Origin: Mobula hypostoma
Lineage: Eukaryota
NCBI RefSeq assembly: GCF_963921235.1
Contig: NC_086108.1
Span: forward strand, 48,424,001 to 48,488,000
Length of the DNA stretch: 64,000 bases
Reading direction: 5' to 3'
A program made the translations under genes and the position numbers. Below the pieces are notes generated by a model. That model ran no database searches. It saw nothing but the letters and a program-made list of their open reading frames with translations, and had not been told where the DNA came from. Shown in pieces: positions 400 through 39,400 of this stretch (position 1 is its first letter; each line of letters opens with the position of its first letter).

Positions 400-1343
400 T
401 TTGTTTTGCTTTTCCCTCTCCTTCCCTCTTCTATTCTCCACTCTGGCCTTGTACCTGTTCTCCTCCTTTGTCTCTCACCTCCCCCAAGTGCCCCTCTTCC
501 TTCCCTTTCTCCCACAGTCCACTCTCCTCTCCTATCAGATTCCTAGTTCACCAGCCCTTCAACCTTCCCAACCATCTGGTTTCACCTTTCACCTTCACGC
601 TAGTCCTCCTTCCCCTCCCCCATCTACTTATTCCAGTGTCTTCCTCCTTCCTTTCCAGAACTGAAGAAAGGTCTTGCCCTGAAACGTCGACTGTTTATTT
701 ATTTTCATAGATGCTGCCTGAACTGCTGAATTCCTCCAGCATTTTGTGTGTGTTGCTCTCTAGATTGCCACAAATGTATTTGATTGTACTGCTTCTACAA
801 ATGTACTGTGGAGAGCATTCTGACTGGCTGCATCATCATCTAGTGTGGGGTAGTAGGGGGTTTACCACACAAGATCGAAGTAAATTGCAGAGACTTGTAA
901 AATTAGTCAGTTCTCTCATGGCTACCAGCCTCTGTAGTATCTAAGACATCTTCAAGGAGCACTGTCTATCATTAAGGATTGCCACCACCCAGGGCATGCC
1001 CTCTTCACACTATTACCATCAGGTAGGAGGTACAGAAGCCTGAAGGCGCACAGTCAGTGATTCAGGAACAGCTTCTTCCCCTCTGCCATCTGCTTTCTAA
1101 AGGACATTGAACCCTGCGACACTACCTCACTACATTTTTATTTCTGTTATTTTGCTCTACTTGTTTTAATTTAACTATTTAATAGATATACATACATATA
1201 TACACACACACTTAATGTAACTTCATATTTATTTACCTTGTATTTCATTGTACTGCTGCTGTAAGGTTAACAAATTTCACGACATAAGCTGGTGATATTA
1301 AATCTGATTCTGATTTCCAGCATCTCCAGAATCTCTTGTGTTT
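400..1343 (+). mobile_element. Old Penelope-derived 3' fragment (degenerate hammerhead near 657-693), split by a nested Rex1/Babar-like LINE 3' fragment (about 766-1315)
   Basis: Pyrimidine-rich tract then ctgaagaaaggtcttgccctgaaacgtcgactg...atagatgctgcctg...tgtgtgttgc. The remaining tail gatttccagcatctccagaatctcttgtgttt resumes near 1311. The insert encodes Rex-like ..CGESILTGCI.. and ends attaaatctgattctgatt. Confidence 0.7.
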
Positions 1344-5100: not shown

Positions 5101-8100
5101 AAACAAAATGCTGATAAAGTAACAACACATCAATTACTTTAAAAATACATTTTGTAGAATAAATCGATCTTTAATTGGTTTGAGTAGCAATAGGCATTCA
5201 TATTACTGACATTTTATAAAGTTTTACATGCTGTAACATAAAATGTTCAGAATGAAATTCTTAATTACTTTTCATTTTGAACTAATTCTACCCTTTATAT
5301 GGTTTTTTAATTACTTCTTGGTTGATCTTGTATGGATAGCTTTCATATTTACAACAGCAACACTTTCTGAAAGTTAAGGTATTCTTCACAATGTACAATC
5401 ATCTAAGCTGGATTCAACTGGTAAGTGATTCAGCAGTTCAATCATCAATAAGCTAAATTCATATTTTTATTAAAGACCACTGCTGTAACTTGCCTCGTAC
5501 ACGGCTTCTCACTACGTCAGAGAGGAATGGAGGGAAATCATCCACTAACCGGAGAAACTCCGGATGCAACGTACCTCTCCTGTCCTTATTAAAGACTAAC
5601 AAATGAGGAGGCATTTACTCCTCTTCCAACTCTTTAATCAGAATCAACTGATTTTAAATGAATGCAAATTGTTTGAATTTTCATCTTTCTATTATCATTT
5701 AACCCTAAAATGGACAATGGCTTCTGACAAGAGTACCAGTAAAATAACTTTCTATTGTGTTTTTTTTTCCTTCAGAAAATGCAGAGTCCTTGGAGATGCA
5801 CATTCTTTCTGGGGGCAGCAAACTGCAGATTGCTCGGTCACAGCTTGCTGACAGTGGCTCCTACACCTGTGTGGCAAGAAATGTGGAGGGGATGGCTCAC
5901 AAAACCTACATCCTGACAATTCAAGGTGCGCAAAAGCCAAGAGTCTAACTACTTTTCCTGCAACATACATCAAAGTTGCTGGTGAACGCAGCAGGCCAAG
6001 CAGCATCTATAGGAAGAGGTGCAGTTGACGTTTCAGGCCGAGACCCTACGTCAGGACTAACTGAAGGAAGAGTGAGTAAGGGATTTGAAAGTTGGAGGGG
6101 GAGGGGGAGATCCAAAATGATAGGAGAAGACAGGAGGGGGAGGGATGGAGCCAAGAGCTGGACAGGTGATACGAGAGGATCATGGGACAGGAGGTACGAG
6201 AAGAAAGACAGGGGGGGGGTTGACCCAGAGGATGGGCAAGAGGTATATTCAGAGGGACAGAGGGAGAAAAAGGAGAGTGAGAGAAAGAATGTGTGCATAA
6301 AAATGAGTAACAGATGGGGTACGAGGGGGAGGTAGGGCCTTAGCGGAAGTTAGAGAAGTCGATGTTCATGCCATCAGGTTGGAGGCTACCCAGACAGAAT
6401 ATAAGGTGTTGTTCCTCCAACCTGAGTGTGGCTTCATCTCCACAGTAGAGGAGGCCGTGGACAGACATGTCAGAATGGGAATGGGATGTGGAATTAAAAT
6501 GTGTGGCCACTGGGAGATCCTGCTTTCTCTGGCGGACAGAGCGTAGATGTTGAGCAAAGCGGTCTCCCAGTCTGCGTCGGGTCTCACCAATATATAAAAG
6601 GCCACATCGGGAGCACCGGACACAGTATATCACCCCAGTCGACTCACAGGTGAAGTGATGCCTCACCTGGAAGGACTGTTTGGGGCCCTGAATGGTGGTA
6701 AGGGAGGAAGTGTAAGGGCATGTGTAGCACTTGTTCCGCTTACACGGATAAGTGCCAGGAGGGAGATCAGTGGGGAGGGATGGGGGGGACGAATGGACAA
6801 GGGAGTTGTGTAGGGAGCGATCCCTGCGGAATGCAGAGAGAGTGGGGGAGGGAAAGATGTGCTTAGTGGTGGGATCCCGTTGGAGGTGGCGGAAGTTAGG
6901 GAGAATAATATGTTGGACCCGGAGGCTGGTGGGGTGGTAGGTGAGGACCAGGGGAACCCTATTCCTAGTGGGGTGGTGGGAGGATGGAGTGAGAGCAGAT
7001 GTACGTGAAATGGGGGAGATACGTTTAAGAGCAGAGTTGATAGTGGAGGAAGGGAAGCCCCTTTCTTTAAAAAAGGAAGACATCTCCCTCATCCTAGAAT
7101 GAAAAGCCTCATCCTGAGAGCAGATGCGGCGGAGACGGAGGAATTGCGAGAAGGGGATGGCGTTTTTGCAAGAGACAGGGTGAGAAGAGGAATAGTCCAG
7201 ATAGCTGTGAGAGTCAGTAGGCTTATAGTAGACATCAGTGGATAAGCTGTCTCCAGAGACAGAGACAGAAAGATCTAGAAAGGGGAGGGAGGTGTTGGAA
7301 ATGGACCAGGTAAACTTGAGGGCAGGGTGAAAGTTGGAGGCAAAGTTAATAAAGTGAACGAGCTCTGTATGCGTGCAGGAAGCAGCGCCAATGCAGTCGT
7401 CGATGTAGCAAAGGAAAAGTGGGGGACAGATACCAGAATAGGCACGGAACATAGATTGTTCCACAAACCCAACAAAAAGGCAGGCATAGCTAGGACCCAT
7501 ACTGGTGCCCATAGCTACACCTTTAGTTTGGAGGTCTCAAAGCTCTACGCTTCTTTTTGGATTCCAGACCTAATCAGTTCCCCTCTACCACCACTCTGCT
7601 CCGTCCAGCGGAATTAGTTCTTACTCTTAAAAATTTCTCCTTTGGCTCCTCCCACTTCCTCCAAACTAAAGGTGTAGCTATGGGCACCCGTATGGGTCCT
7701 AGCTATGCCTGCCTTTTTGTTGGGTTTGTGGAACAATCTATGTTCCGTGCCTATTCTGGTATCTGTCCCCCACTTTTCCTTCGCTACATCGACGACTGCA
7801 TTGGCGCTGCTTCCTGCACGCATACAGAACTCGTTCACTTTATTAACTTCGCCTCCAACTTTCACCCTGCCCTCAAGTTTACCTGGTCCATTTCCGACAC
7901 CTCCCTCCCCTTTCTAGATCTTTCTGTCTCTGTCTCTGGAGACAGCTTATCCACTGATGTCTACTATAAGCCTACTGACTCTCACAGCTATCTGGACTAT
8001 TCCTCTTCTCAACCTGTCTCTTGCAAAAACGCCATCCCCTTCTCGCAATTCCTCCGTCTCCACCGCATCTGCTCTCAGGATGAGGCTTTTCATTCCAGGA

Positions 8101-11100
8101 CGAGGGAGATGTCTTCCTTTTTTAAAGAAAGGGGCTTCCCTTCCTCCACTATCAACTCTGCTCTTAAACGTATCTCCCCCATTTCACGTACATCTGCTCT
8201 CACTCCATCCTCCCACCACCCCACTAGGAATAGGGTTCCCCTGGTCCTCACCTACCACCCCACCAGCCTCCGGGTCCAACATATTATTCTCCGTAACTTC
8301 CGCCACCTCCAACGGGATCCCACCACTAAGCACATCTTTCCCTCCCCCACTCTCTCTGCATTCCGCAGGGATCGCTCCCCACACAACTCCCTTGTCCATT
8401 CGTCCCCCCCCATCCCTCCCCACTGATCTCCCTCCTGGCACTTATCCGTGTAAGCGGAACAAGTGCTACACATGCCCTTACACTTCCTCCCTTACCACCA
8501 TTCAGGGCCCCAAACAGTCCTTCCAGTGAGGCATCACTTCACCTGTGAGTCGACTGGGGTGATATACTGTGTCCGGTGCTCCCGATGTGGCCTTTTATAT
8601 ATTGGTGAGACCCGACGCAGACTGGGAGACCGCTTTGCTCAACATCTACGCTCTGTCCGCCAGAGAAAGCAGGATCTCCCAGTGGCCACACATTTTAATT
8701 CCATATCCCATTCCCATTCTGACATGTCTGTCCACGGCCTCCTCTACTGTGGAGATGAAGCCACACTCAGGTTGGAGGAACAACACCTTATATTCCGTCT
8801 GGGTAGCCTCCAACCTGATGGCATGAACATCGACTTCTCTAACTTCCGCTAAGGCCCCACCTCCCCCTTGTACCCCATCTGTTACTCATTTTTATGCACA
8901 CATTCTTTCTCTCACTCTCCTTTTTCTCCCTCTGTCCCTCTGAATATACCTCTTGCCCATCCTCTGGGTCAACCCCCCCCTCTTGTCTTTCTTCCCGGAC
9001 CTCCTGTCCCATGATCCTCTCATATCCCCTTTTGCCTATCACCTGTCCAGCTCTCGGCTCTATCCCTTCCCCTCCTGTCTTCTCCTATCATTTTGGATCT
9101 CCCCCTCCCCCTCCAACTTTCAAATCCCTTACTTACTCTTCCTTCAGTTAGTCCTGACGAAGGTTCTCGGCCTGAAACGTCGACTGCACCTCTTCCTATA
9201 GATGCTGCTTGGCCTGCTGCGTTCACCAGCAACTTTGATGTATGTTGCTTGAATTTCCAGCATCTGCAGAATTCCTGTTGTTTGCGTTATAACTACTTTT
9301 CCTTCTGCTTTGAGCTTATCATTAGATCATAATATCAGTCTGGTTGCTGTCATAATCAATTTGCTTAGTTTGTGTGCATAACGAGGAAGAACGAAACAAA
9401 GGCAATTGTATAGCAAGTGCAAGAGCGAAGAACATACGAGAACCCTTCACCAACTTTCACCCTCCCAATCCTTTTCATGTTAATGTTAATAATGATCACA
9501 TAGAACAGCATCAGATTTAATAAAAATTATGGTTAATTGAACTTGCTCATGACATACTCCTGGCACCTAATTTCGTCCAGTTACCTTTTATCTGTTCAAT
9601 CCAAACCAGACAGATAACAATCAAAAATTTTAAGATCAGGCTCTGTTTTCACTACGTTTGCAGCATCCTTTAAACCTCCACCTCACCCCTACCCCACTCT
9701 ACCTTGACTTTCTTAAACTTTGAGCTTAGTTTCTCTGAGGTTGCTTTCATTATGTAAGCTCTAACTTCATAAAGTCCTAAAGAATAACCACCTGCCCCCA
9801 CCATTCCTCAGAGTCCGGTTCAGGTTTAATATCACTGACACACAGTATGTTGTGGTATTTGTTGTTTAATGCATCGTAATGCTTCTTACCTCATTCTACA
9901 ACCTATGCACCTTCCAAATTATTTGCTCCTAGTTTTAAAAACCTCTCTGGAACTGGATCATCCTGACTCAGCATCCAAGCTCATCCCAGACTTTCATCTC
10001 TCACTGCACACTTTCCCCTCTCCATCCTCATTTCTGGTGTTTGCTTTGTAACAATCTTGATTAAATCTGCTGTTGCTCAGCATTTGCCTGGCTGCTTCTG
10101 TTAAAAATACTACACGGTAGAATGTAGGTGTTGATTCTGTAACTTTTCAAAAGAGGAATAATGCTACCTTGTTCTAGTCTAGATGTCTTTTCTCCTGAGA
10201 ATTCATTAATGTGACCATCTGAAGTAATAACAATGCTTAGGCAACAAAGGGAAAGAATCAGGGAACAATGACTTGACACACCTCAGTGGAGTAGGTACAA
10301 AAGAAGGAGATGTAATTATCCAAAGAACAGTTTGGTCCCTGAATCTCTCTAATTCATTCCAATTTATTCCAACACATTGAAAAACTGGAAAACTTGAGAA
10401 CATGAAGTAGTAGAAAGAAAATCTCCTACTGAACAGTTAAAAAGAAATGTAAACACGAGGAAATCTGCAGATGCTGGAAATTCAAGCGACACACACAAAA
10501 TGCTGGTGAACGCAGCAGGCCAGGCAGCATCTATGGGAAGAGGTACAGCCGACGTTTCAGGCCGAGAACCTTCATCAGGACTAACTGAAAGAAGAGATAG
10601 TGAGAGTTTCAGTTAGTCCAGACGAAGGGTCTTGGCCCAAAACGTCGACTGTACCCCTTCCTATAGATGCTGCCTGGTCTGCTGCATTCCACCAGTATTT
10701 TGTGTGTATTGCTTAAAAAGAAACATAGTGTTTTCCATAGCAAATACATTTATATTTGTTAAAAAAAACTAAAATCTGATGGCTCCCACATCCATAATTG
10801 AGGGACTTGAAGGGAAATTAGAAACAATTGGACTGAGTGCTTATTTGGAGTAAAAGCTGTAAATCAAATATGATAACAGAATAGAGCTAATGCTGATATT
10901 GCTTAGAACCCCAGGTCAAAGAAGTTTTGCAAAACATTGCATATCCTCCATGTATTTTCAAGATTATAGAGAGATTAGTGGGAAGGTTGGATCGATTGTT
11001 ACAATTTGTGAAAGTTTCAAATACCAGCTCGAAATAAAATAAACCAAGAATAATCAAGCAGATTCTTCCCACCAAGGAATTATAGACCTGTGCAGAACAT

Positions 11101-14100: not shown

Positions 14101-17100
14101 GTTGTCCCCAGGTTACAAATGGAAAAAGTCAAAATGAAGTATTTCCATTTTTTCATTTTATTCACAAATATCATCAATTACTTCAAAGCAAGCAGCAACT
14201 GTTTTTATAGGCTACAGTATGCAACTACTGTTTATAGCAAAGCTATGGTGATAAATTCAATGTGAACATCTGACAATTTTGGCCAAGTTGTCACTTTCAT
14301 CAGGACATGGGACACACTCCTCTGTTTTCTCAACAATGCAAGGAACAATGTTAATCATGACCACAAGAAATACTGAAAAAGGGAACTAAATACAGTTTAT
14401 GAGTAAACGTTCATGTCTTGCTTCAGACATCAACTGAGAAACCACATACCGTGCAGTGGAATATCTTCAAGCACTGTAGAATTACTGTGTGGATCATAGG
14501 TTGAAGTTCTGAAGTAAAGTTTGAGCTTCATTAAGCCAAAGAGACCCTCAGCGGTATCTTGTTGCCAAGTTTCTGAAAAATCTCTACTCTCCAGTGATCT
14601 TTTCCACATCATGTGTCCATAAACTGGATCCGGCAGAGTTGCACACATAAAGTGCTGGAGGAACTCAGCAGGCCAGGCAGCATCTATGGAAACATAGAAA
14701 CATAGAAAATAGGTGCAGGAGTAGGCCATTCGGCCCTTCAAACCTGCACCGCCATTCAGTATGATCATGGCTGATCATCCAACTCAGAACCCTGTACCTG
14801 CCTTCTTTCCATACCCCCTGATCCCTTTAGCCACAAGGGCCATATCTAACTCCCTCTTAAATATAGCCAATGAACTGGCCTCAACTGTTTCCTGTGGCAG
14901 AGAATTCCACAGATTCACCACTCTCTGTGTGAAGAAGGTTTTCCTCATCTCGGTCCTAAAAGGCTTCCCCTTTATCCTCAAACTGTGACCCCCCCCCACC
15001 CCGTTCTGGACTTCCCCAACATCGGGGCCAATCTTCCTGCATCTAGCCTGTCCAATCCCTTTAGGATTTTATACATTTCAATAAGATCCCGCCTCAATCT
15101 TCTAAACTCCAGCGAGTATAAGCCTAGTCGATCCAGTCTTTCATCATATGAAAGTCCTGCCATCCCAGGAATCAATCTGGTGAACATTCTTTGTACTCCC
15201 TCTCTGGCAAGAATGTCTTTTCTCAGATTAGGGGACCAAAACTGCACACAATACTCCAGGTGTGGTCTCACCAAGGCCTTGTACAACTGCAGTAGTACCT
15301 CCCTGCTTCTGTACTCGAATCTTCTTGCTATGAATGCCAGCATACCAGTCGCCTTTTTCACCGCCTGCTGTACCTGCATGCCCACTTTCAATGACTGGTG
15401 TATAATGACACACAGGTCTCGTTGCACCTCCCCTTTTCCTAATTGACCACCATTCAGATAATAATCTGTTTTCCTGTTTTTGCCACCAAAGTGGATAACC
15501 TCACATTTATTCACATTAAATTGCATCTGCCATGAATTTGCCCACTCACCTAACCTATCCAAGTCACCCTGCATCCTCTTAGCATCCTCCTCACAGTTAA
15601 CACTGCCACCCAGCTTCGTGTCATCCACAAACTTGGAGATGCTGTATTTAATTCCCTCATTTAAGTCATTAATATACATTGTAAACAACTGGGGTCCCAG
15701 CACTGAGCCTCACAGTATCCCACTAGTCACCGCCTGCCATTCTGAAAAGGTTCCATTTATTCCCACTCTTTGCTTCCTGTCTGCCAACCAACTGTCTATC
15801 CATATCAATACCATACCCCCAATACCGTGTGCACACTAATCTCCTATGTGGGACCTTGTCAAAAGCCTTTTGAAAATCCAAATATACCACATCCACTGGT
15901 TCTCCCCTATCCACTCTACTAGTTACATCCTCAAAAAATTCTATGAGATTCGTCAGACATGATTTTCCTTTCACAAATCCATGCTGACTTTGTCCATTGA
16001 TTTCACTGCTTTCCAAAGGTGCTGTTATCATATCTTTGATAACTGACTCTAGCAGTTTCCCTGCCACCGATGTCAGGCTAACCGGTTTATAATTCCCCGG
16101 TTTCTCTCTCCCTCCTTTTTTAAAAAGCGGGGTTACATTAGCCACCCTCTAGTCCTCAGGAACTAGTCCAGAATCTAAAGAGTTTTGAAAAATTATCACT
16201 AATGCATCCACTATTTCTTGGGCTACTTCTTTAAGCACTCTGGGATGCAGACCATCTGGCCCTGGGGATTTATCTGCCTTTAATCCCTTCAATTTACCTA
16301 ACACCACTTCCCTACTAACATGTATTTCCCTCAGTTCCTCCATCTCACTGGACCCTCTGTCCCCTACTATTTCTGAAGATTATTTATGTCCTCCTTAGTG
16401 AAAACAGAACCAAAGTAGTTGTTCAATTGGTCTGCCATGTCCTTGTTCCCCATGAACAATTCACCTGTTTCTGACTGTAAGGGACCTACATTTGTCTTAA
16501 CCAATCTTTTTCTTTTCATATATCTATAAAAGCTTTTACAGTCAGTTTTTATGTTCCCTGCCAGCTTTCTCTCATAATCTTTTTTCCCTTTCCTTATTAA
16601 GCCCTTTGTCCTCCTCTGCTGGACTGAATTTCTCCCAATCCTCAGGTGAGCCGCTTTTTCTGGCTAATTTGTATGCTTCTTCTTTGGAATTGATACTATC
16701 CCTAATTTCCCTTGTCAGCCATGGGTTCACTACCTTCCCTGGTTTATTCTTTTGCCAAACTGGGAAAAGAGTAAACAGTTGACGTTTTGGGCTGAGACCC
16801 TTCCAAGTGAAATAGCTTGCCCAAATTCACTGACTTGGCTCACAACCAGGTCAACATTGAGTGAAGTACCAGGTCACCTCAACATCTAGAACATTAGAAG
16901 CTTCAGAAAAAGGAAGAATGAGAAATGAAACTAATGACCTGTTGAATTTAACTTGATGCATTTAAAGTACATCTGTGTCTTATTGTTTATTAATGTATCA
17001 TCATAAATTGTATTTAATTCTCTTTTTCAATATATCTTGTAACATTTTTAAGTTCTTTTATACCATTTATTCAACTAAAAACTTAGAGATATGGGAAATA

Positions 17101-20100
17101 ATTGTTTTAAAGTATAATTGTTAAAGTACGAGGCAGGGTTTCAATATGATCTATTTATATAGTAGTAAGTCACGATATCAACTAATAAATCAATGCCATT
17201 TCTTCTCCAGTTCCACCAGTCATTCACAGTAATCAGATGGGGAACCAGGAACTGACAACTATATTGGATAACTCTATTAATATTGAGTGTAAGGCTACTG
17301 GCTCCCCACCTCCACAGCTGAACTGGTTAAAGAACGGTCTTCCTCTTCCAATTTCATCTCAGATCCGGCTGCTCTCCGCTGGGAAAGTTCTGAGGTTAGT
17401 TTTCTGGAGGGCAATGACTTTTCATTGAATTTTTTTAATCTGAAGATTCAAAGCCCGTTTGGTGCAGGATACCCAAGGTTGTCAGAGGCCTAGGTTCTGC
17501 CACATCTGAACTTTTCAAGCCAGTCAGAAGGCTGAAGAGGTAATCCCGGGAAATCAGGACCAGAATTGATTTATTACCACTGACATATGTCGTGACCTTT
17601 GTTGTTTTGTGGCAGCAGTACAGTGCAAGACGTAAAATATTACCATAAATTACAATAAAAATAGAACAAATAAATAGTGCAAAAGGCCGATAGTGAGGTA
17701 CAGTTCATGGGTTCACAGACCGTTCAGATATCTGATGACAGAGGCGATGAAGCTGTTCTTAAAACATTGAGTGTGGGACTTCAGGCTCCTGTACCTCCTC
17801 CCTAATGGTTGTAATGTGAAAAGACCATGTCCACTATGGTTAATGATGGATGAAAGGTCCCTGAATTGGAGACAGTTCATTGAGGCTCGATTTACTCTGA
17901 GGATTCTGAAGACTGAGAGGTTACAAAGGCACTTTAGGAATCAGTAAGTGAGCACTGAGGTTACCTTCTGGACTTCCTACACTGGTACTCTGCAATCCAC
18001 TCAGGATGCCTTCTCAGGAATCAGAGCTATCATCGATGACATACCATGATGTGCTGCCGACAGTACTTCTGTACTGAAACCTGGCCAAGCAATGAATCAC
18101 TGACATGGCTTAGTATGGAGAGGCTGGCTGTGAGGACTACAAACTGCAGTTGGGTGGGCCCAGGTGAGCAGTTCGCCTGCTCAGCAATGAGATGTGGGGC
18201 ACGGGGCTACACTCCAAAGGATAGTTATTGCTGAGGACTGACAGCACCTACTCCATGTGTTGATGGTCTCCCCCCTCAGGCTGGGTGAGACTAGAACCAG
18301 TTGTCATAGGCTTTGAGTGAAGCTTAAACATTTAACTTTTAATTTGAGTCAGTAGTAAGAAAGGAAAATGCAATTTAAGCATTCATTGCAAGAGAACTAG
18401 AATAATAAAGCAAGGATGTAATGCTGAGGCTTATAAGGCATTGGTCAGACCACATTTGAAGTATTATAAGCCGTTCTGGGCACCATATTTAAGCTAGGAT
18501 GTGTTGGCATTGGAGAGGTTCCAGAGGAGATACACAAGAAAGATCCCAAGAATGAAAATGTTAATGTATGAGTTGTGTTTGATGACTCTGGGTCTGTACT
18601 CAGTGAGTTTAGTAGGATGAGGGGGACCTCATTGAAACCTTCCAAATATAGAAAGGCCTAGATAGAGTTTCCAGAGGGAGGATGCTTCTAATAGTGGAAG
18701 AGTCTAGAACCAGAAGACCCCACCTCAGAATAGAAGGATGTCCTTTTAAAACAGAGACAAGGAGGAATATTTTTATCCAGGTAGGATGTTGGGGTGAACC
18801 TGTAGATTTCATTTCCACAGACGGCTGTGGAGACCAAGTCACGAGGTATGTTTAAGGTGGAATTTGATAGGCAAGAGAATGGGGTTGAGAGTAGGGTTGC
18901 CAACTTTCTCACTCCCAAATAAGGGACAAAAGGTGGCATGCCACGGCGGTGTGGGTATGGTGCAGGCCCAGGATGAAGTGACTGAGGAGGCTGGCAGCTA
19001 GCAGATTTGTAAACATGGTAATTTTTTTCAAAAGAGAGAGAGAGAGAAAAAAACAACAACCCTGAGTAGGTAAACAAATCCAGTATATGAACCATATATA
19101 CATATCTTCAGTGTTATATACGAAATGTAACACCAAATTATAACAGAACATAATCTGACTACCAGTCAGACGTGAAATAACACCAAATAACCCTATCTGT
19201 ACGTGCCTATAGAGTAGACGTATAATCACTGCAAAAGAGGAAAAGAGGAAGGGACTCTCTAAGTCTACTTTTTCCATGGATATTTCTTGCTGCTCTTGAC
19301 TGATTCAAGCATTCCTTTGTCTTTTTGCACAGCCAGAGAGAAGTCCTTACATGACAAGTGACAGTTCACAGATATTTGAAGTTCATTTTTGATCAGCTCT
19401 GTGCTGCATCTGTTTCTTGAGTCTGACCAGTTCATGGTCATCAGAGAGAAGATCCTCTCTGCAAAGGCATTTGAGCCTGGCTCACTGAGGACAAATGAGA
19501 CAATCCTGAACATGTTGATCAAGTTGGCTTTCCCTATGTTTTGGAAAACTGCCACCCATTTCTCACTGGTGGATTTTGTGGTATCCTGTCTGGCTTTCTG
19601 TATTTCCTCCCGGCTAGCGCAAAACTCTTCATAGAGTTGGTCCACATTGACTGTCTCTGTCATTTTGAGGGCAGCCACCACCTGCTCCAGGTCAGTGAAG
19701 GAGAGCTCCTCATAGAGGCCGATTGGTTTCAGTTTCATCGTTACATTTACTGGTGAAAAAACAAACCACTTATCAATGTATGTAATGACAGAGTCATAGA
19801 ACTTCACAAAGTCCTGTTGCTGCTTGAACCTTTGTGCTGGCACTTGTTTGTCCATCAGCTGCTTGGTCTGGTATCCAGAAAAGCTGTCCTATTTCCGCTG
19901 AAGCATCTTCATTTTGAACTTTCGGACTTCCTAGTAAACATCTGTGATGCAGAGTTTTGTTTCCTCCAGCTTTTTTATGAGTTAGTCAAAAACACACCCC
20001 ATGTCGTGGAAAAAGCACAGATAAATTTTTGTAGCTCCAGTCTTTCTTCATCCTCAAAAATCCTCTTCAGTACCACAGGACAGGTCTCAAGGGACCTGAA

Positions 20101-23100
20101 GTATGATGTAAGAGTTGGCCAGCTTTGCAGGAGACGTTCGACAGCTAGATGAAGAGAGAGCCATCGTGTGCAAACATGACGCAGAATTTCACACCACTCA
20201 ATGTCAACAAAGGCAAAAAATGAATGCAGGTCCTCTCCTTGGGAAGCAGATATTGAGAAGTGGCTGTAGACCTTGAGAATAATTGTCTCAATATCCACTG
20301 ACAGCTGACCACAGGCGCGTTTGCAGGCCTGATGAGCTATGTGAGCTGAGCAATTAGCTTTCAGAATGCGATTGTTGGCCCTGCTCAGTAACCAGTAAAC
20401 TGAGTGTGGTTTTCCAAAGTTTACATTGGCTTTATCTGCTGCATAGGCTGTGATGTGTCTAATATCCAGTTCATACTTTTCCAGACAGCTCATCAGAGCT
20501 TGATGTATGCCATTTGCAGTTTCATAAAAGTTTCATACTGTCTTCATAAAAGTCAAGTAACTTACACTGCACTCCATCAGACAGAGAGAAATATCTCACG
20601 CACACTGGAAACATTTTTCTATCTCCCCTGTTTGAGGCATTGGTGCCAACTGAGAAATACGCGGGGTCCGTGGGCTCACCTTCTTCGGTCAGGGACAGAT
20701 CATCCATAATATCCCGCACAGTCTTTGGTCCTAAAACATTCATTGTAATCATCTCGGCTTTCGCTCTTCCCAAGTGCATCTTCTTCACAACATTTGAGTT
20801 GTTAAACAAAGCACCGTTGAGCTTAGCAAGACAGTAGGTGCTGTTGTAGCTGAGTCCGTTTTTAACCGTATGATACACATATGAGGCTTCACTTGCCGCG
20901 ATTTTGTCATTTTCCGCAGTAGATTTCACGAAGAATGCACCAATATTGTTTGCACCTTTAGCTAGTGTGGCCTTTTTGTGCAGTTGTGTGGAAGCATGCT
21001 GAGTTAGGTCATTCTCACTTCCATGGCCAATTGAGAATTCCCGACGGCATAAAGACTCGTCGACGTCGAGTCACCGCTGACGGGCTTAACCCACGTCGTT
21101 TTTCCTTCCCATTGCTTGTTACAGCTGCACAGTCTTTTCTTTTTTGGCGGTTTATCCATATTGGCTCATGCCAAACCAACCAAACAACACCGGACGTTAC
21201 TGAAACTTTTTGTTTTGACAGGAATTGGCAAAATATAGCACACAACTGATGCGCATAAGGGGACCTGTGATTGGATGACAGGTGAATCACTTGTGCGTGG
21301 CGTCAACAGCACATACAACACGCACACACGCTGTTGTATCAGATCTAGGATCTGTCTGTAAGCGTGCCCTCTGGTGATTACAGAGTAGTAGCAGTCAAAT
21401 ACTGGACAAGGGCGGTCCCGTATGGGACAAACCAGTTTAGCCCAATATACAGGATGTCCCGGCTAATACGGGACAGTTGGCAACCCTAGTTGAGAGGGAA
21501 AATAAATCAGCTGTAATCAAAGAGCAGAGCAGACCTGATGGGCCAACTGGCTTAATTCTGCTCTTGTTTCTTACAGCTTTATGGTCAAAGCTGTGGTACT
21601 CTATGACTACCAGATCCTACGATCTCCCTCATCACCTACTGATTGTAATGCCTCCCTCTTTCTTTGTCCAGTTGCCCTAGTCTAGAGAGTACCCTGCGGC
21701 CAGCTGTTTGTTCCCCAGTACTGGCCTGTACTCATCTCACCGTGCCAATCGACTGCAGCCACTAGCCCCACATCCCATCACCGAACAACTACATCACTCA
21801 CCACAGCTTAACTATGTCAACCCTGTGGTGTGACTCGTTACTGAGAGAGTGCAAGCAGAAGGTAGGCAGTTACTCCAGGAGTGCAGCACAACAGTAGGAA
21901 GGGCAAGGAGTCACACCAAGTACGTAGCCGAAGTTAATGCCAAGTTTCAGTGTTATGTACCTGTGCATGTATAACCTCAAGCACTGCAATAAATCAGCAC
22001 TCCAGGAGGCAGCACCAGACAGGGTGTCAGTGTAATGGCAGGCCCAGACCGTTCCACTGAAGTGCCATTTTGCATTCAAATAAAAGTGGAAACAGCTGGA
22101 TAGGTGTGGAGAGAAAGACAGCTCCTAGAGCATAAAGGAGGAGCGATACTGGTACAAAATGTCTGCCTAAACTGGAAATGATTCTCTCTATCTCCATTTG
22201 CCAAAAGATCTGAGTTTGCAATTCTGGTTTTATTTCAGGTTGAATATATAACCTAAGAATAATATTTGGGCTCAGAAGTCAAGTTTAATTGGAAGTCTTA
22301 GGTTAATCCATATCCTAAGGAACTCTTCACACTTGTTATTTCCTGATTTGAACTTGATAATTAGCTTAACTTAATTGACTTGAGCAACAATCAAGTATTC
22401 CCATTGGGGAGCTTGCATGAAAAGACGTGGGATAGACACCTGAGTCAGCAGCATCAATGGTAAAAATAGCCAAAAATGTAACCACAACAAATACCGTTGT
22501 CCCCAACCCCCAAATCCAGGTGAAGCTAGATAGTCAGAACTATTTATTATTATAAGGCAGGACACTGGGGCTGAGAGGAACATTGGATCAGCCATGATGA
22601 AATGGCAGAGCAGATTCGATGGGGCAAATGGCCTAATTCTGCTCCTTTACCTTATGGTTTTATGGTCTATCACTCTTTCACAGAATTGTGCGGGCCCAGG
22701 TGTCAGATGATGGGACGTACACTTGCGTGGCATCTAATCGAGCTGGTGTGGACAACAAGCATTACAACTTAATAGTGCATGGTGAGTTTACTAACAGGGA
22801 TCATGCATTACTTTACAGCATTCTCTTAGTCTGTAGTTTCTAAGCATATGTTGTGGAAAAGAGTTTATTTACATTGCAAATTTGAATCGTTGAACAGTTT
22901 CATTGGCACAGGAGACTGCTGTAAGGGTGAACAGCAATGAGGCCACAGGCAGTGATCCTGCATTATTGACTATTTATCACGTGGCAGCTGCTTTTCCCAT
23001 TGTGCAGAAAGGTCGCATCCTTTAACAGTCTTCTTCCCTTCCCTTGGGTTCCCCAGCACCCTGCCTTCTTGAAACTCTGGGCTCACCTGGACACCCAGGG

Positions 23101-26100
23101 ACTGCTGCCTAGGATTTATTTTATTGAACAAGGGTAATATCGTGTGTCTCATGGGTTGAATTTATTATGTGTGTGTATTTGATTTAGTGGGTATGGCAGA
23201 TCGATATGTGAACAGGGCAGCACAGTACGGACCCTTTGGCCCGTGATGTTGTGCCAGACATCAGTCTAACCATTCCCGCCGACACAGTCCGTAACTTTCC
23301 ATTTGTCTTTCATCCATGTGCCTAACCAAGACTCTCAAATGTCCCTAATATATCAGCTTCTACTACCATTCCTGGCAGTGCCTTCAAGGCACCCACAACT
23401 CTTTGTGTAAAGAAAACCCTACCTCTATGATATCTCCCCAAAACTTTCTTCCACTCACCTTAAAAGTATGTCCTCTGGTATTAGCCATGGCCATCCTGAG
23501 GAAGAGGCACTGGCTGTCCACTCTATTTATGAGCATGCGTATAAAGAACATGTTTGCAATGTTGAATGAGACAAGCAGGGATAAACTCCCGCACAGACTA
23601 CACATTCACCGTAACATACATCAAAGTTGCTGGTGAACGCAGCAGGCCAAGCAGCATGCTGCTTGGCCTGCTGCGTTCACCAGCAACTTTGATGTATGTT
23701 GCTTGAATTTCCAGCATCTGCAGAATTCCTGTTGTTTACACATTCACCGTAGTTATTGCATGAGCAGAGTCAAAACGATTCATTACTTTCCATTGTTTTC
23801 TTTGCCGAACGCAGTCCCTCCAAGGATGGATGGCGCTGGTAGCATCAAAGACCTCACGATAGTGAAGGGGAATCCAGCAGCCCTAACATGCATCACTGAT
23901 GGAATACCAATGCCAACATTAGCCTGGCTGAAAGAAACACAACCTCTTAAGCTGAGTCCTCACATGACAGTTGGAAACCAGGGAATGTCACTGCAGATTT
24001 CTGCAGCGGAGGTGGAAGACAGTGGAACATACACCTGTGTGGCTGTCAGTGAAGCTGGGGAGGTCAGCAAACACTTCAGCTTGAAAGTGCTTGGTAAGTC
24101 AGACATAACACACCACCACGAATGAAGGAAAGCTCTGGCAAATAAGTCTGGGCACTGGCCATGGGCAATTGATGGAGGCAGCCATCTCCTAGGCAGAGAG
24201 ACATCAGAAGTTTGTTCTACGGAAAAATCCCCATGGTCAGAGTTCACAGATATATCATTGATAGTTGCCATTGCATCATCTGCTGCTGCAGAAATGGCAA
24301 GTGGTAAATTTTGACACTAAAGCCAGTCACAGTGGTAAGACAATGCATGAAGATTAACTGGCCTACAGAGTGAAAAGTTAAAAACATATGACTAGTTTTA
24401 TTATCGGTTTTGATTTTTTAACTTATTTGTTTAAGAAACTTAGTTTCCATGCATTGGATCACTTGCTTCACTCTTTTACAGAATTTCAAGAAAACTCGTT
24501 TAAGTTTTATTTTATGGCATATTGCAGATCCACCTCATATTAATGGCTCTGATTTTGCGGAGGAAACCTCTGTGGTGGTGAACAATCCCTTAGAACTTCA
24601 GTGTGTTGCCACGGGCATCCCAGCTCCCAAATTGACCTGGATTAAGGATGGACGACCACTGCCTCAGACAGACACCATTCACGTTCTCCGTGGTGGCGAA
24701 GTGTTGAGAATAGAGAACGCTCAGGTGTGGTGCAAGCTCCTATGCAAATTGGCTCTTTCTCTGTAATAGTTGCAAACAGTGTGGAGACATGTGATGATTG
24801 CATATTTCATTGCAGGCTTTGCTTTAACACTAGAGCTTGCAGAAGGAATGCATTAATAGACCTGCTTTAAATAATCTTTATCACTGTAATTAAATAAGTT
24901 ATCGTCAAATGTTTTAGTGTTCACAGAGAGATACTAATACTATTTGCGCCATTGAGGAAATAAAACTTACAAATCCCGATAGTTTTTAAAATCCGGCATA
25001 TTAGATACTTCTGGAAATATTTCTGAAGGTCCAAAAAGGAGGTGCAATTATACACTGGTTTTCTCAGACACGATGTGTATTTTGGAAAGTCTTCCCAAAC
25101 AATGAGCTGCTCCATCAGCAGGAGGAGTATTCCCGCTTCTCAAACCACAGCCTACTGTCACATTGCCCTAGATGTCAGGCACAGTCCTCCTTCCACCCAT
25201 CTACTGTCAAATGGACCCCTTATCTCTTCCAGCGCACAGCACCGCTCCCCTAACCCCTGCCACACGATGTTAGGAAGCAGACTGTCTTCAGTAGCAGGAG
25301 TGGGTTTCACTTGGGGGAAGTGCCTAGTTAGGCGCAATATTTCAAGGTAGGGCTTTCCCCTGCTGGTGATCCCCATCTGAGAAGCACTGGGTGTGCCTGA
25401 GAAAAGGAAAATTTAATAGAACCCTTGAGGGCAAGACTGGAGAAAATTTGACGGAGGGCTAGAGACCAACAAAGGGAGGGGTCTGAGACCAAGTGATCAC
25501 TGGTATCTCTCTCCTCCTCCACTTTGTCTCTCCCGTCCTCTCTCCACTCCTCTCCCCCTCTCTCCCTCCTTTCTCTCTCTCCCTCCTTTCTCTCTCTCCC
25601 TCCTTTCTCTCTCTCCCTCCTTTCTCTCTCTCCCTCCTTTCTCTCTCTCCCTCTTTTCTCTCTTTCCCTCTCTCTCTCTCTCTTCTACATCTCTCCACAC
25701 CCCCTCTCTCTCGATCCAAACATTAAATATTCCTTTACCCACTCTATTTCTCCATTTCACCCCACCCCTCATCAATTATTCTCTCTGATCTGAGCCAGAC
25801 CTGCCCATGAAGATCCTTCCTCTTGTAATTCCCGTGCCTATATTCACTCCCACTGTTTCATTAGTAAGGAGCCTGGTGGGATAAAAAGCCATGTCCTGCT
25901 CCTACTCTCTGCTGTCTATGATTCTAAGGATAGGCCATGCCTTGTAGTGTGTAGTTCTCAGCCACATGGATATTGAACAGTTTATGGCAGGATGCAGGAT
26001 TTTTAAAGAATTGTTTTCTAAAACTGAAGTCCTCAAAAATGTAATGGTTTATACATTGGGTTTTATAACCTATGTGGTAGAATTGCTAATGTACCTCTGT

Positions 26101-30400: not shown

Positions 30401-33400
30401 CTGATCAGCAATATGTTATTGCTGTTTTCTCTGTCCCTCAATGCATTAAACTGATTACTATGGTCCTTCACATCTCCATATGGTCTTACTAATGTGGCTC
30501 CAGTAATTTCTTCCTCTTCAATTTCTGTCATTCATGTTCTTCTGTTGCTATCTTTGTCCATTGATCTGCACATTCACTCCCTTTCTGTATCTTACTCTCC
30601 CCTTTCTGGTGTGTCTTTACTTCAATTGCTGCTACCTCTGCAGGCAGCTGCACAACTTCCAACAGCTCTTCACTGTGTTTGGCCCCAACTCTTGGGAGCT
30701 CCTGACATGATTCACAATCATTGTTCCACCTCCTACCCCTGCTTGGGGCTGCTGTCTCTCTGTGAGTTGTGTTGACTGGTCTGTGGATCATAGACGTTCG
30801 CTGTTCCTGTCTTTTCCACTGTATTTCTCCCTTTCCCAAATCTAAGATAGCATCGATACTGATGACCCTGTGTCCACTACATATCACATTGCCACCCCCC
30901 CCCAATAAACCTCTTGTGTACATCGATGGATGACCACCACTGGCAATCAAAGCTGCCACTAGCCGTTTATCTGACCTGGATGCTGACTTCACCAGCTCTA
31001 TAATCTAGTCAGCAGTCAAATCGAAAAGAGGCCACTGCTGTTGGTTCTGCCTGCATTAGTGAGTGATTTTCACACCTTCTGCCCTTTCCAGGCCACTGCT
31101 TCCAGTTGTGACCTGAGAGACCACAGCTATAACAAATTATCTTCTTTACCTTTCCACGTCTATTCCTGCAGTTCCTTGCTAGGTGCCCAATTGCTAGCAC
31201 ACCAAGCAAGTCCCCTGACATCACAGCAGCTGCATCCATCGGACCCGCCTTATCACTTCTCTTCTCCCTCTGATGTATCTTCCCAGCCTGTAAGACCATA
31301 AGGTATAGGGGAAGAATTAGGCCATTTGGCCCATCGAGTCTGCTCTGCCGTTTCATCCTGGCTGATCCAGTTTTCCTCTCAGCACCAATCTCCTGCCTTC
31401 TCCCTGTATCCCTTCACACCCTGACCGACAAAGGATCTATCAACCTCCATCTTAAATATACATAACGACTTGGCCTCCACAGCTACCTGTGGCAAAGAAT
31501 TCCACAGATTCAGCACGCTCTGGCTAAACAAATTCCTCCTCATCTCCGTTCTAAAAGGACACCCCTCTGTTCCGAAGCTGTGTCCTCTGATCTTAGGTTC
31601 TCCCACCATAGGAAAAATCCTCTCCACCTCCACTCTATCAAGGCCTTTACCATTTGAAAGGTTTCAATGAGGTTACCCCTCGTTCTTCTGAATGCTAGTG
31701 AATGCAGGCCCAGAGACATCAAACACTCTTCATATGACAAGCCATTCAATTCTTTTGCTGGGTAGGTCGATCCCACCACTGTCGCCAAATGTAAAACTTC
31801 CTGGTGGGCTGAGCTCAGGCCTTCCTTCAACATTTTCAGGAAAACTTGTTCAACCCTCCCTGGATTATCCAACCATGAATAGTCCTCATACACTTGACAC
31901 TTACATTCTGCAAAATCTATGGCAGGCTTATCAGTTCTCTGATCCACTGACATTATTGTTCCCCAGTTACTCTTACCTCCTCCCAGTCCCTACCTCACAT
32001 TCCCCTAAAACAAGTGATATCTCTCTTCATTGCTGGAGTTCCCAGCAGTTGCCCATGTACCATCCTACACTCCCTGGCCCATACTGTACCACATATTCCT
32101 TGGGCATTTCACTTTTACCAACACATGTAAACCTTTGGGGTGCATCTGATGAATTTCAATCATTTCCTCGAGCTTGCACCAGAACTCTTGTTTTCCCGCA
32201 GATGACTTTAAGTGAGGGCAGCTCTAAAAAGGTTTGCTTCTCCCTGGGGGATATAGGGCTTATCAGGGTCAAGACTGCTGAGATCACTGACCACACAATG
32301 GGTCATGAATTGGGTATAACCTCTCCCTCAAATATCTTTACACTAATTCCCACACTACAAAAAATATAAATGATGGATAATAATTAAACAGTACATACTT
32401 AAAACCGCAGAATATCTACTCTGCAATCTGCCACCTGCCACTTGTGTGTATCTGAGCACATAATGCCTGTTGTATTCCTTTGCATTTAAAACTCTTACAC
32501 CAAGGTTACAGACTTATTGTGAAAAAACACACAAACACACTCACAAACGAGTCTGCTACTATAGTTCCCCAAACCCCACTGGTGTCCCATATATTATATC
32601 TACCAGTTCAGCTCTCTGCCGTATCCATGATACTTTGTGATCTCATAGCCATTGACCTGAACAGATCTAATCATGGTTGCTAATCTTAAAAATACTCACC
32701 CATGTAGACTGCTGAGATTGCTGGCCACACAATGCAGAACAAGCATATCCCAGATGAGCCCCCAAATGCTGTGACTGTCAATGAAAGCCACCAGAGAGAC
32801 ATGCAGCTTGTAAGATAAAAGTCTTTCTTCAGCACACACAAGCTGACAGCATTTGGAGTGACTCTGGAGAGAGGATCCCTGACCCAATATTAATCACAAT
32901 TTTGTATGCTAAGGATCAAAGGTAACAGCAGGATAATTTATCTAGTTACAATGCATTCATAATGCTTTCTTTGAATTACATAAAATTTTCAAACACCTAG
33001 CTCTTCACACCAACACTCCAGATACCCAAAGTCAATGTTAATCACTGCTGACTCTGAGCTGCATTCATACATATGCAGACATCTCAGGTCAATGAGCTAC
33101 TTCCTGGTTTGCATTCAACCCCAGTCTGCAGCTCCAGGAAGACCATTGTTCTGAGCAGTATTTTAAATTCAATTTTGGGTGCTACTGATCACTTCAAGAT
33201 TTTGTGCTGTTTTTTGTTCCCTAAGGCTACATCCACACTAGACCGGATAATTTTGAAAAACAATAGGCGTCCACACCAGGCATTTTTTTAAAATACCTCC
33301 GTCTACATTAGAACGAATATTTTGGGCAAATCTCCCCCTAATGGGCATGCGCAGGATACACAGAAAACAAGTGAAGAGGAAACAGTATACTTGGTGCACG

Positions 33401-36400: not shown

Positions 36401-39400
36401 TTTATCTAGCTAGTTTATGTCAACCCTTCATTGGATCTGACCCAAGGCTACTTTAGCTCATTAATCTTCCACCAAAGGAGAATTTGTGCCTTATGTCACC
36501 TTTTTCTCTCCCAGAGCCAGACCCATTCAAATCAGTTCTGGCCGCCTCAAGCCAGTTGCTGAGCTCAGGTTACTTTAGTGCACAGATAGCTCTTTTCAGC
36601 TCTACTCACCTGGCCAACAGAATTACACGAAGGCCAGGCCGTATACGGTGACATAATTACTCCCTGAAAGACTGTGACCAAACTAATTAGCTTTTAGTAA
36701 CAACTGTGATATCAAGCTTTTTTCCAGATTTGTAACAATACAATTTAACTTGTCAAATTCTTAATCCACTATGATGGGATTTGAGCCTGGCCCTTCCGAA
36801 ATGATAGCTGAGACTTTTGGATTACCATTTGGGAGGCACGACCATGTTCCTGCCATCCACAGCCCATTGCCTCTACTTAAATGCTCACATCGTGTTGAAA
36901 ACCACCTGCTTAAATCTATATCCTGCTAGTCTTTTGTACATCTAGCTGGACAGCAGTTGTTAACCAAAGACCTTATGTGGGATTGTAAACTCTGCAAAAT
37001 GTTAAACCAGAAAATGCACAGTTGCTGCTGCAATCTACAAGTAACTAATTGGTCCTGAAGCACAGGTACTAATGAAAAGACAAAAGAGAAGCCCTATTTA
37101 GATGCACTTCCTGTTTCTTTTTTTTAAACCAGGTATTCCTTCTCAGAGGATGGTTCATTGCATATTGGCTCAGCTCAAGTAACAGATACAGGCCGTTATC
37201 TATGTATGGCAACCAATGCAGCAGGAACAGCTCGTAAGAGAATTGATGTACAGATCTATGGTAAATGCATTTCAAATCATTGGCATAAATTGCTGATAGC
37301 ATCTTGGATCCTATCTGATTTGCTGTTAAAGGTCTTGAACCTATGCACAGGGAGGTTTCACTTTCAAAATAGAAGGCTGCTTCTTTTAAAAACGCAAACA
37401 ACAGGAATTCTGCAGATGCTGGAAATTCAAGCAACACACATCAAAGTTGCTGGTGAACGCAGCAGGCCAGGCAGCATCTCTAGGAAGAGGTACAGTTGAC
37501 GTTTCAGGCCGAGACCCTTCGTCAGGACTAACTGAAGGAAGAGTGAGTAAGGGATTTGAAAGTTGGAGGGGGAGGGGCAGATCCAAAATGATAGGAGAAG
37601 ACAGGAGGGGGAGGGATGGAGCCAAGAGCTGGACAGGTGATTGGCAAAAGGGATATGAGAGGATCATGGGACAGGAGGTCTGGGAAGAAAGACAAGGTGG
37701 GAGGGGAACCCAGAGGATGGGCAAAGGGTATATTCAGAGGGACAGAGGGAGAAAAGGGAGAGTGCGAGAAAGAATGTGTGTATATAAATAAATAACAGAT
37801 GGGGTACGAGGGGGAGGTGGGCATTAGCGGAAGTTAGAGAAGTCGATGTTCATGCCATCAGGTTGGAGGCTACCCAGACGGAATATAAGGTGTTGTTCCT
37901 CCAACCTGAGTGTGGCTTCATCTTTACAGTAGAGGAGGCCGTGGATAGACATGTCAGAATGGGAATGGGATGTGGAATTAAAATGTGTGGCCGCTCTGTC
38001 CGCCAGAGAAAGCAGGATCTCCCAGTGGCCACACATTTTAATTCCATATCCCATTCCCATTCTGACATGTCTATCCACGGCCTCCTCTACTGTAAAGATG
38101 AAGCCACACTCAGGTTGGAGGAACAACACCTTATATTCCGTCTGGGTAGCCTCCAACCTGATGGCATGAACATCGACTTCTCTAACCCGCTAATGCCCCA
38201 CCTCCCCCTCGTACCCCATCTGTTATTTATTTATATACACACATTCTTTCTCGCACTCTCCCTTTTCTCCCTCTGTCCCTCTGAATATACCCCTTGCCCA
38301 TCCTCTGGGTTCCCCCCTCCTTGTCTTTCTTCCCGGACCTCCTGTCCCATGATCCTCTCGTATCCCTTTTGTCAATCACCTGTCCAGCTCTTGGCTCTAT
38401 CCCTCCCCCTCCTGTCTTCTCCTATCATTTTGGATCTCCCCCTCCCCCTCCAACTTTCAAATCCCTTACTCACTCTTCCTTCAGTTAGTCCTGACGAAGG
38501 GTCTCGGCCTGAAACGTTGACTGTACCTCTTCCTAGAGATGCCGCCTGGCCGGCTGCGTTCACAGGCTGCTTCTTTTGAAGTCACATCAGCTATAAGTGT
38601 CTTCAGTTAAGTTATTTTATTAGAGTTACAGCTTGGAACAAGTCCTAATGGACCTTTGAGCTGCACCAGCCAACAACCCACCGATTTAATCGTAGGCTGA
38701 TCACGGGACAATTTGCAATGCCTGATTAGCTTACTAACCGGTAAATCTTTTGATTGTGGGAGGAAACTGGAGCACCCTGGGAAAAACCCATGCACACATA
38801 GGAAGGAACGTACAAACTCACTTACAGAGGACGCCGGAACTGCGCTCTGAACTCCAACGCCCCGAGCTGCTGTGCGAACCACTAAACCACTGTGACACCC
38901 CATTGTAAAATCAGTTGATAATGTGAGGCAGAATCCCATGCAATGCACATTTTATTTTATCTTTGTCTGCTTTTAGATTAACATAGAAATGCTAAAAATA
39001 GGAGCAGGAATAGAGCATTTGTCCCCCAGCACTGCTCTGTCATCTCAATACCACATTTCTGCTCTCACAGGGAAGATCAACTTCTGTATTTTGTACTAGA
39101 ACAGGCTGAGGAATCTCAGGAGACCTGCTACTTTCCAAATAATTGTAAACAATTAAAAACATTGGGAAGAATTTTTCACATGAGCAAATAAACTTTACTT
39201 CTTGAATAGAATGAGTTTCCTAAGCCCCTTAATTGCAATACCACCCTTATCATGTGTATTTCTTTGTTAAATTTGATTTTTGTTCATCAGGCACTTCAGA
39301 CCCATTTACGAATGATGCTTCATTTTCTGGCACATAGTTTACACTGTTCCTATAAAAGGTCACTAAGATGAAAGGTTATCATTTTTCTCTCTCCACAAAT

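Follow-up and report, generated by a model that had tools for sequence, protein, structure and literature searches.

The 36-nt motif at 9150-9185 of the Mobula hypostoma DNA analysed here (the window, 64,000 nt in all) is best explained as the minimal type-I hammerhead of a Neptune-type Penelope-like element (PLE) present in many copies. Its copies in the introns of a hemicentin gene would then be passengers of truncated insertions, likely inert, and the prediction is that they leave the pre-mRNA uncut. We give this reading a probability of about 0.85. Read directly from the window, the plus strand at 9150-9185 is AGTC CTGACGA A GGTTCTCGGCCT GAAA CG TC GACT, and with C17 at 9181 the predicted cut falls at 9181/9182, in agreement with the position proposed in an earlier sequence-only reading of this DNA.

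We searched the window with a strict core pattern, CTGANGAN{8,24}GAAACNTH, and obtained six matches (661+, 9154+, 10551-, 37498-, 38491+ and 52876+), where 100 shuffles gave 0.14 +/- 0.35 with a maximum of 1. A 36-nt scan allowing up to 14 mismatches detected 13 hammerhead-like copies, 7 on the plus and 6 on the minus strand (Table 1), and recovered every copy position listed in the sequence-only reading to within 1-2 nt. The core (CUGANGA, GAAA, U16.1 and H17) is complete in 7 of the 12 tabulated copies, which score 12/12, and the copy at 43949 lacks G12. Helix I of 4-5 bp combined with a palindromic 15.2-16.2 was found at 9150, 38487 and 10547; the first helix I pair is lost at 37494 and 6023, and the palindrome fails at 52872. 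The sequence-only reading had ascribed to the sense copies 9150, 38487 and 52872 one pattern with a GUH triplet (AUC at 52872), a helix III reduced to the self-complementary ACGU and a flanking GACT arm. The ACGU is indeed present at 9150 and 38487; the triplet at 38487 is GUU, and 52872 reads ACAU, which breaks the palindrome, and GATT in the arm. Copy 9150 carries at 9164 a T that disrupts its usual helix II register; this is a minority letter, G accounting for ~97% of the depth in contigs of the sequencing runs.

Table 1. Coordinates of the host gene, the element parts and the hammerhead-like copies in the window.
Feature	Position	Strand	Details
Host gene, 21 exon-like segments	1985-63735	+	colinear with residues 1-1079 of a hemicentin-1-like protein
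pLTR, pyrimidine-rich, from GIY-YIG stop codon (8852) to hammerhead	8853-9149	+	predicted acceptor-like end CTTCCTTCAG, AG at 9146-9147
Minimal type-I hammerhead motif	9150-9185	+	helix I AGTC/GACT; core CUGACGA 9154-9160; extra A 9161; helix II region 9162-9173, U at 11.1; GAAA 9174-9177; CG palindrome 9178-9179; U16.1 = 9180; C17 = 9181
3' pLTR part and ~35-nt tail	9186-9288	+	most 3' ends near 9244-9253 or 9283-9290
Plus-strand copies (start positions)	657, 9150, 10615, 38487, 41289, 52872, 59437	+	mismatch scan
Minus-strand copies (start positions)	6023, 10547, 16777, 37494, 43949, 59411	-	mismatch scan
Insertion A, two 5'-truncated Neptune-type PLE copies	5955-9288		inverted, 3' ends outward
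Insertion A, hammerheads	6023-6058; 9150-9185	-; +	A9>U in 6023-6058; tail on right arm only
Insertion A, 14-bp TSD	5946-5959; 9290-9303		begins ~30 nt after host donor site
Insertion B, short inverted pair	10451-10717		11-bp TSD
Insertion B, hammerheads	10547-10582; 10615-10650	-; +	core intact; U4>A, G12>A
Insertion C, palindromic PLE end without hammerhead	23613-23737		15-bp TSD
Insertion D, inverted pair of PLE 3' ends with endonuclease remnants	37391-38563		14-bp TSD
Insertion D, hammerheads	37494-37529; 38487-38522	-; +	first helix I pair broken; GUU triplet
Longest PLE copy, 5'-truncated	50352-52971	+	frameshifted RT, Cys linker and GIY-YIG ORF 50352-52577
Longest PLE copy, hammerhead	52872-52907	+	ACAU, palindrome broken; after pLTR
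Solo short PLE end	43898-43987	-	dead hammerhead (G12>A, 1-nt deletion); 14-bp TSD candidate
Older second-family copy	657-692	+	core letters intact, two core-proximal helix I pairs broken
Older second-family copy	41289-41324	+	core letters intact, helices I and II degenerate
Older second-family inverted pair	59355-59578		dead copies 59411-59446 (-) and 59437-59472 (+)
Second-family fragment	16777-16812	-	without CUGANGA half, G12>A

Counted from the stop codon of the PLE ORF, the motif core begins 302 nt downstream in the copy at 9150 (core at 9154) and 299 nt downstream in that at 52872 (core at 52876). In the window this ORF matches RT (E 5e-5) and GIY-YIG (E 5e-4) below Pfam's cut-off, whereas among 25 aligned relatives RVT_1 was detected in 23 and GIY-YIG in 20, pointing to a single ORF with RT followed by a C-terminal GIY-YIG endonuclease (EN). 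Ahead of the endonuclease sits a CX4CX2C linker (CKQNKCYTC at residue 423, plus a stretch of 15 letters), and the Cys linker is present in 107 of 111 relatives that bear the EN CxxC. A CX2-5CxxC linker between RT and EN is described as a mark of Neptune-type elements (PMC8557442, PMC3846280). The element thus appears to be an EN+ PLE of Neptune type, a classification set by domain order and Cys linker rather than by an RT tree. Screening 8,000 candidates gave 1,246 relatives, of which the best that bear a name come from Mobula and Hypanus, with up to 91% identity, and the family is very abundant, with ~96,000 and ~101,000 contigs mapped in two DNA runs. Mapped contigs terminate at 9283-9288 into AT-rich flanks. 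Inverted, 5'-truncated copies with a tail at a single end and a short TSD were found in the window; an inverted pLTR with a one-sided tail has been described for PLEs (PMC8557442), and such ends have been tied to two RT start sites (PMC11167929). The hairpin downstream of the motif (9196-9288) is no more stable than shuffled sequence (z -0.34).

Several observations concern the surroundings of the motif and the annotation of the element. Before 9150 (9120-9149), 38487 and 52872 we see a branch-point-like CTTAC or CTCAC, a pyrimidine tract and a CAG 2 nt before helix I, an acceptor-like end that recalls the D. virilis Penelope intron, which ends at helix I (PMC4209133). A putative cryptic exon from the acceptor before 9150 to the GT at 9240 would be 92 nt long and out of frame. 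The peptide read through the motif is present in two Mobula gene models, one of which (P0184) starts it at the acceptor-predicted residue. The open frame through the hammerhead (a peptide of 11 letters) is a doubtful candidate for the N-terminus of the PLE protein: the second family described below has this frame closed, it was not seen in 120 PLE relatives screened, and the position of the ATG relative to the motif is inconsistent in six relatives. Two further NCBI ray models, P0002 and P0003, named as divergent protein kinase domain 1C and chitinase domain-containing 1 isoforms, consist mostly of the ORF of this PLE and their host-protein names are likely misannotations.

To place the motif in other elements we used the best 80 of at least 505 confirmed metagenome PLE relatives, with 37-59% protein identity. 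Among the 27 loci that reach the C-terminus with at least 400 nt behind it, the motif occurs 96-139 nt past the ORF match in sense in 10 and in antisense in none; it was found in none of 100 shuffles. Fifteen aligned motifs from relatives gave a covariation score of 0.886 against 0.213 when shuffled, a score that is partly built in because these motifs were chosen for pairing. A rescan by sequence only, in which stem pairing is no requirement, sidesteps this bias: an A followed by G10.1-C11.1 was found in 26 of 34 distinct core matches, and in those 26 helix II pairs in 24 and helix I in 22, against none in the remaining 8. At 15.2-16.2 the rescanned core matches carry CG in 20 cases and GC in one. 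The loci L038:126-160 and L058:2191 are relatives with GC, still palindromic, or GG at these positions; the GG is non-palindromic and stands in both inverted copies. The exact 30-letter motif had no match in the metagenome contigs.

The sequence-only reading had proposed an Infernal or RNAmotif search for hammerheads. An Rfam scan of the window up to E 10 returned 11 matches, with a hammerhead among none; the Rfam hammerhead models expect helix III. With a covariance model built from the 15 motifs of metagenome PLE relatives only, 9 of the 13 window copies were recovered at E < 0.02, two more at E 0.46 and 0.68 and one at 4.7, and 59437 was missed; the 11 best matches of this model in the window are family copies, every one. 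Could the motif be a chance match within a repeat, with no ribozyme ancestry? The silence of Rfam would fit, as would the predicted fold, in which the hammerhead helices do not dominate (pair probability of helices I and II <=0.03 in 196 nt of local context). We nevertheless see almost no chance of this, given the same motif in the same place and on the same strand of relatives at 37-59% protein identity, its covarying stems, and the recovery of ray copies by a model trained on those relatives. The earlier identification of a minimal type-I PLE hammerhead is borne out, as are a monomer that offers no usable helix III and a dimer-type architecture. The motif sits in the pLTR in sense to the element, is conserved with covarying stems across relatives, and has persisted in active elements over long times.

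A second ray family points to the same unit. In two DNA runs its contigs join the reference at 9150 and leave it at 9186, which are the hammerhead borders. The majority letters of the two families agree at 11 of 11 core positions, 33 of 36 over the whole motif, 8 of 14 in the next 14 nt and 37 of 44 over 9200-9245, suggesting that the conservation excess of the motif over the distal flank is modest. An upstream identity of 5/30 between the families was set aside, several copies being truncated there.

How did the copies arrive? Insertions A, B, C and D are each inverted pairs whose 3' ends point outward. We found TSDs at five of the nine insertions examined, including the 14-bp candidate at 43898-43987, and none at the other four. 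The longest copy (50352-52971) yielded neither an inverted arm nor a TSD when these were looked for, and a full-length upstream junction of pLTR and ORF is absent from the window. Insertion C is a 125-bp palindrome that shares 82 identical nt with 9202-9283. It sits ~75 nt upstream of an exon acceptor and is the source of a below-threshold mir-2 match in Rfam. Insertion A is a nested inverted repeat of 3.3 kb with arms of 753 and 455 nt at 99%, predicted to form long double-stranded RNA in the pre-mRNA; its inner arms are more alike than its hammerhead ends (96%). Over 8830-9300 the run X10, which we guess to be RNA, shows 12 A>G and 2 G>A places, the DNA run X4 7 and 9, and X17 7 and 3; the counts of X10 and X17 could be due to editing or to copy choice. 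Other repeats share the window. Adjoining the longest PLE copy is a stop-free frame of 1047 aa (53833-56976, minus strand) with an APE endonuclease and RT, which we take to be a CR1-type LINE, and pieces related to it lie at 14738-16625, 31333-31750 and 43581-45511; the broken frames at 19265-21070 (minus strand) resemble a hAT-type transposase remnant.

The short units of 90-270 bp had been likened in the sequence-only reading to non-autonomous, ribozyme-bearing retroelements, and part of this holds: several are independent, TSD-flanked insertions without an ORF. A separate retrozyme- or SINE-like family that copies itself via hammerhead-processed RNA could also explain why depth over 9150-9260, measured by contig mapping, exceeds the depth over the upstream pLTR about two- to threefold, and one chondrichthyan genome is reported to contain tandem retrozymes with hammerheads (bioRxiv 2026.07.22.740005). 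Such an origin is unlikely in our view. In reference coordinates the units have scattered 5' ends (9128, 9143, 9147, 9153, 9159, 9193 and 9202), and the cleavage site, 9182, is the start of none of the 15 pieces aligned. Insertion C has no hammerhead. None of the 13 tandem-repeat rows in the window is a head-to-tail array of the unit, so that the two or more head-to-tail hammerhead units that define non-LTR retrozymes are not seen here, and neighbouring copies on the same strand lie at least 1.4 kb apart, not in tandem. The 3' ends and inverted arms of the units match those of long PLE copies, and 5' truncation together with the second family would also yield the depth excess. Truncated PLE copies are the best explanation of the short units.

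None of the 13 window copies combines G10.1-C11.1 with G12, eight having TG and five CA at 11.1-12, whereas G10.1-C11.1 is invariant in the 15 aligned relatives and present in 26 of the 27 core matches with the extra A. All 13 copies have lost the CpG at 11.1-12, against 28 of 52 cells kept at the other four CpGs (Fisher 3e-4, on copies that are not independent); the loss at 11.1-12 exceeds the decay expected from the other four. C11.1 is the earlier state of the family because the CA copies retain it. The loss is seen on both strands, and protection of the hemicentin gene is therefore no explanation. In the youngest subfamily all five copies, from three insertions, carry TG, with 16 of 20 other CpG cells kept, and on the simplest reading U11.1 seems to be this subfamily's own state.

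A G-U or A-U pair at 10.1-11.1 lowers hammerhead activity. The youngest subfamily may accordingly move with an attenuated or re-registered hammerhead, either as G10.1-U11.1 or as A10.1-U11.1 with the extra A absorbed, and catalysis would then be weakened or unneeded for its spread. We advance this tentatively, as somewhat short of an even bet; it is compatible with copies that are inert passengers. In its favour are the retention of the other CpGs beside a uniform TG, the invariance of the pair in relatives, the 82-nt identity between insertions A and C, which suggests recent activity, and a report that hammerhead mutants of the Anolis element are unimpaired in insertion in vitro (PMC11167929). 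It is weakened by the small number of independent insertions, three, and by the older copies, which lost this CpG too (3 TG, 5 CA), so that 11.1-12 may instead be a deamination hot spot. In an overlay of contigs from four runs, in which mapping favours reference-like contigs, the 40 variant rows examined of 88 include neither a core letter nor 9173. The overlay shows no point where many molecules start or stop, an observation that has no bearing on cleavage. The portions of the literature consulted gave no measured rate for substitutions at 10.1-11.1.

We then asked what the copies could do to the host transcript. The host gene appears to be hemicentin-1-like, with Ig-domain exons colinear on the plus strand; one exon has 63-68% identity to hemicentin-type matches against 35-47% to ROBO and DSCAM. 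Of the hammerhead copies, 12 of 13 lie between exon-like segments and 657 precedes the first. Because these segments run on the plus strand, the plus copies are sense to the pre-mRNA, as the sequence-only reading had stated. It had further suggested that sense copies could cleave HMCN1 introns unless sequestered by a fold-back partner arm. With 13 copies stemming from about nine insertions, tests for strand bias or for a better-kept core have little power, and within that limit neither was seen: copies number 7 in sense and 6 in antisense (5 and 2 for intact cores), so that sense copies are not depleted. The eight family-1 copies have changes in 4 of 88 core cells against 18 of 360 in the downstream flank, and pooled with four older copies the figures are 9/132 and 37/540 (p = 1). 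A core kept better than its flank specifically on the sense strand, as expected of a host-regulatory element, is not seen in this small sample; the lack of an excess of core over flank among copies was one half of what the sequence-only reading held would speak against its own claim.

Five sense copies keep all 12 core letters, and 9150 and 38487 also keep ACGU and helix I; the GUU triplet apart, 38487 is the best-kept sense copy. Among the other sense copies and 9150, both core-proximal helix I pairs are lost at 657 and core letters at 10615 and 59437, the stems are degenerate at 41289, 52872 has a C-A mismatch in helix III and 9150 the minority helix II change. Antisense arms of 217 and 261 nt lie upstream of 9150 and 38487 in the same intron and are transcribed earlier. 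The fold-back duplex over 38 nt is predicted at -66.9 (9150) and -75.3 kcal/mol (38487), and the homodimer hammerheads at -12.7 (9150), -10.9 (38487) and +2.2 kcal/mol (52872). Dimer energies alone do not show inactivity, because for the inferred undecayed motif the active dimer is also disfavoured in folding (-16.7 against -25.8 for two free monomers). Sequestration by a fold-back arm fits 9150 and 38487 but not 52872, which has no arm in its own intron and a broken palindrome. Partners lie in other introns, the three copies lying 29 and 14 kb apart in different introns.

Live ribozymes could still cut hemicentin pre-mRNA if they acted before the fold-back arm captured them, either with PLE protein as a helper or by forming pairs in trans with further PLE-derived RNAs. 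The intact sense cores speak for this, as do partners that could be common in so abundant a family and the protein-assisted cleavage demonstrated for the Anolis element (PMC11167929). We hold it to be very unlikely, since the antisense arms are transcribed before the sense copy, helix III of 52872 is mismatched, sense copies are not depleted, G10.1-C11.1 or G12 is missing in every copy, and splicing survives slow intronic hammerheads (Dye 2006 and Fong 2009, as recounted in PMC2995048). In published work a PLE hammerhead was inactive as a monomer and weak as a dimer in vitro (PMC4209133), and that of the Anolis PLE needed protein in order to cut, with no RNA-seq ends falling at its site (PMC11167929). 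A genome survey reports depletion of retrozymes in Xenopus introns (bioRxiv 2026.07.22.740005), which by analogy hints at some cost of genic copies. One may go further and imagine that, with half-hammerheads so dense in ray introns (13 in 64 kb), trans double hammerheads nick pre-mRNAs genome-wide and so select the attenuated U11.1 subfamily as the tolerated one, a speculation with long odds against it. The local copies likely do not work as ribozymes on the host transcript, as far as sequence and folding models can tell.

Our preferred reading is thus a PLE hammerhead carried passively into introns. By analogy with published PLE work, the motif of the parent element would work only as a double hammerhead, in which two copies trade helix I strands and the ACGU palindrome of one pairs with that of the other, probably aided by PLE protein, and which would cut tandem PLE transcripts after C17. 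Reverse transcription likely begins ~65-105 nt downstream of the motif, and hence even very short abortive insertions would carry the hammerhead. Such a start would account for the 90-270 bp units, the two 3' end classes, the inverted arms and the TSDs of 11-15 bp. Once inserted, the CpG-rich motif would decay about as fast as its flank, whichever its orientation. Should the youngest subfamily really have spread with U11.1, it would provide a natural experiment on whether an efficient ribozyme is required for PLE mobility, of modest weight for the wider question of PLE hammerhead function. Cutting of pre-mRNA by intronic copies would give a common repeat a genome-wide influence on ray splicing, but the evidence points away from this.

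Hammerheads in amniote introns, named HH9 and HH10, are canonical and active as monomers. Like the ray copies they are intronic and sense to the pre-mRNA (PMC6765202), but they are conserved host loci whereas the ray copies are decaying repeats in both orientations with no helix III. The non-LTR retrozymes of animals (Li, Clavereau, Pollet, bioRxiv 10.64898/2026.07.22.740005) resemble the ray units in being short and non-coding with a type-I hammerhead; they are related to PLE pLTRs and one chondrichthyan genome carries them. They differ in being tandem, with two or more consecutive hammerhead units, where the ray units stand alone or in inverted arrangement and begin at ragged 5' ends. In the element PAc of Anolis carolinensis (Frangieh et al. 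2024, PMC11167929), as in the ray element, the hammerhead lies close to the pLTR end, the 3' ends fall into two classes with a tail between them, and the insertion flanks are AT-rich. PAc, however, is a Poseidon element in which the hammerhead overlaps the start of the ORF, whereas the ray element, known here from sequence, has the Neptune-type Cys linker.

The closest likeness is to the minimal hammerheads (min-HHR) that Cervera and De la Pena described in 2014 in the pLTRs of metazoan PLEs, including Neptune elements of fishes (PMC4209133). A search for a paper on chondrichthyan PLE hammerheads found none, a weak negative because its results were swamped by other shark work, and one of the two supplementary files of PMC4209133 lacks the terms shark, Callorhinchus, Leucoraja and Chondrichthyes. 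Like the ray motif, the min-HHR of PMC4209133 are type-I, have no helix III beyond a palindromic 15.2-16.2, carry a nucleotide after A9 and a helix I of 4-5 bp, lie in the pLTR and are mostly solo copies of truncated elements; opposite-strand pairs 100-700 bp apart are described there too, as in the ray window. The ray motif differs in its helix II of 3-4 bp and in that its 13 copies lack G10.1-C11.1, a pair called highly conserved in PMC4209133; its combination with G12 is typical of min-HHR and stands outside the catalytic boxes of the published descriptor. The motif class has been known since 2014; our work adds to it a ray Neptune-type family, which changes little for the class as then described.
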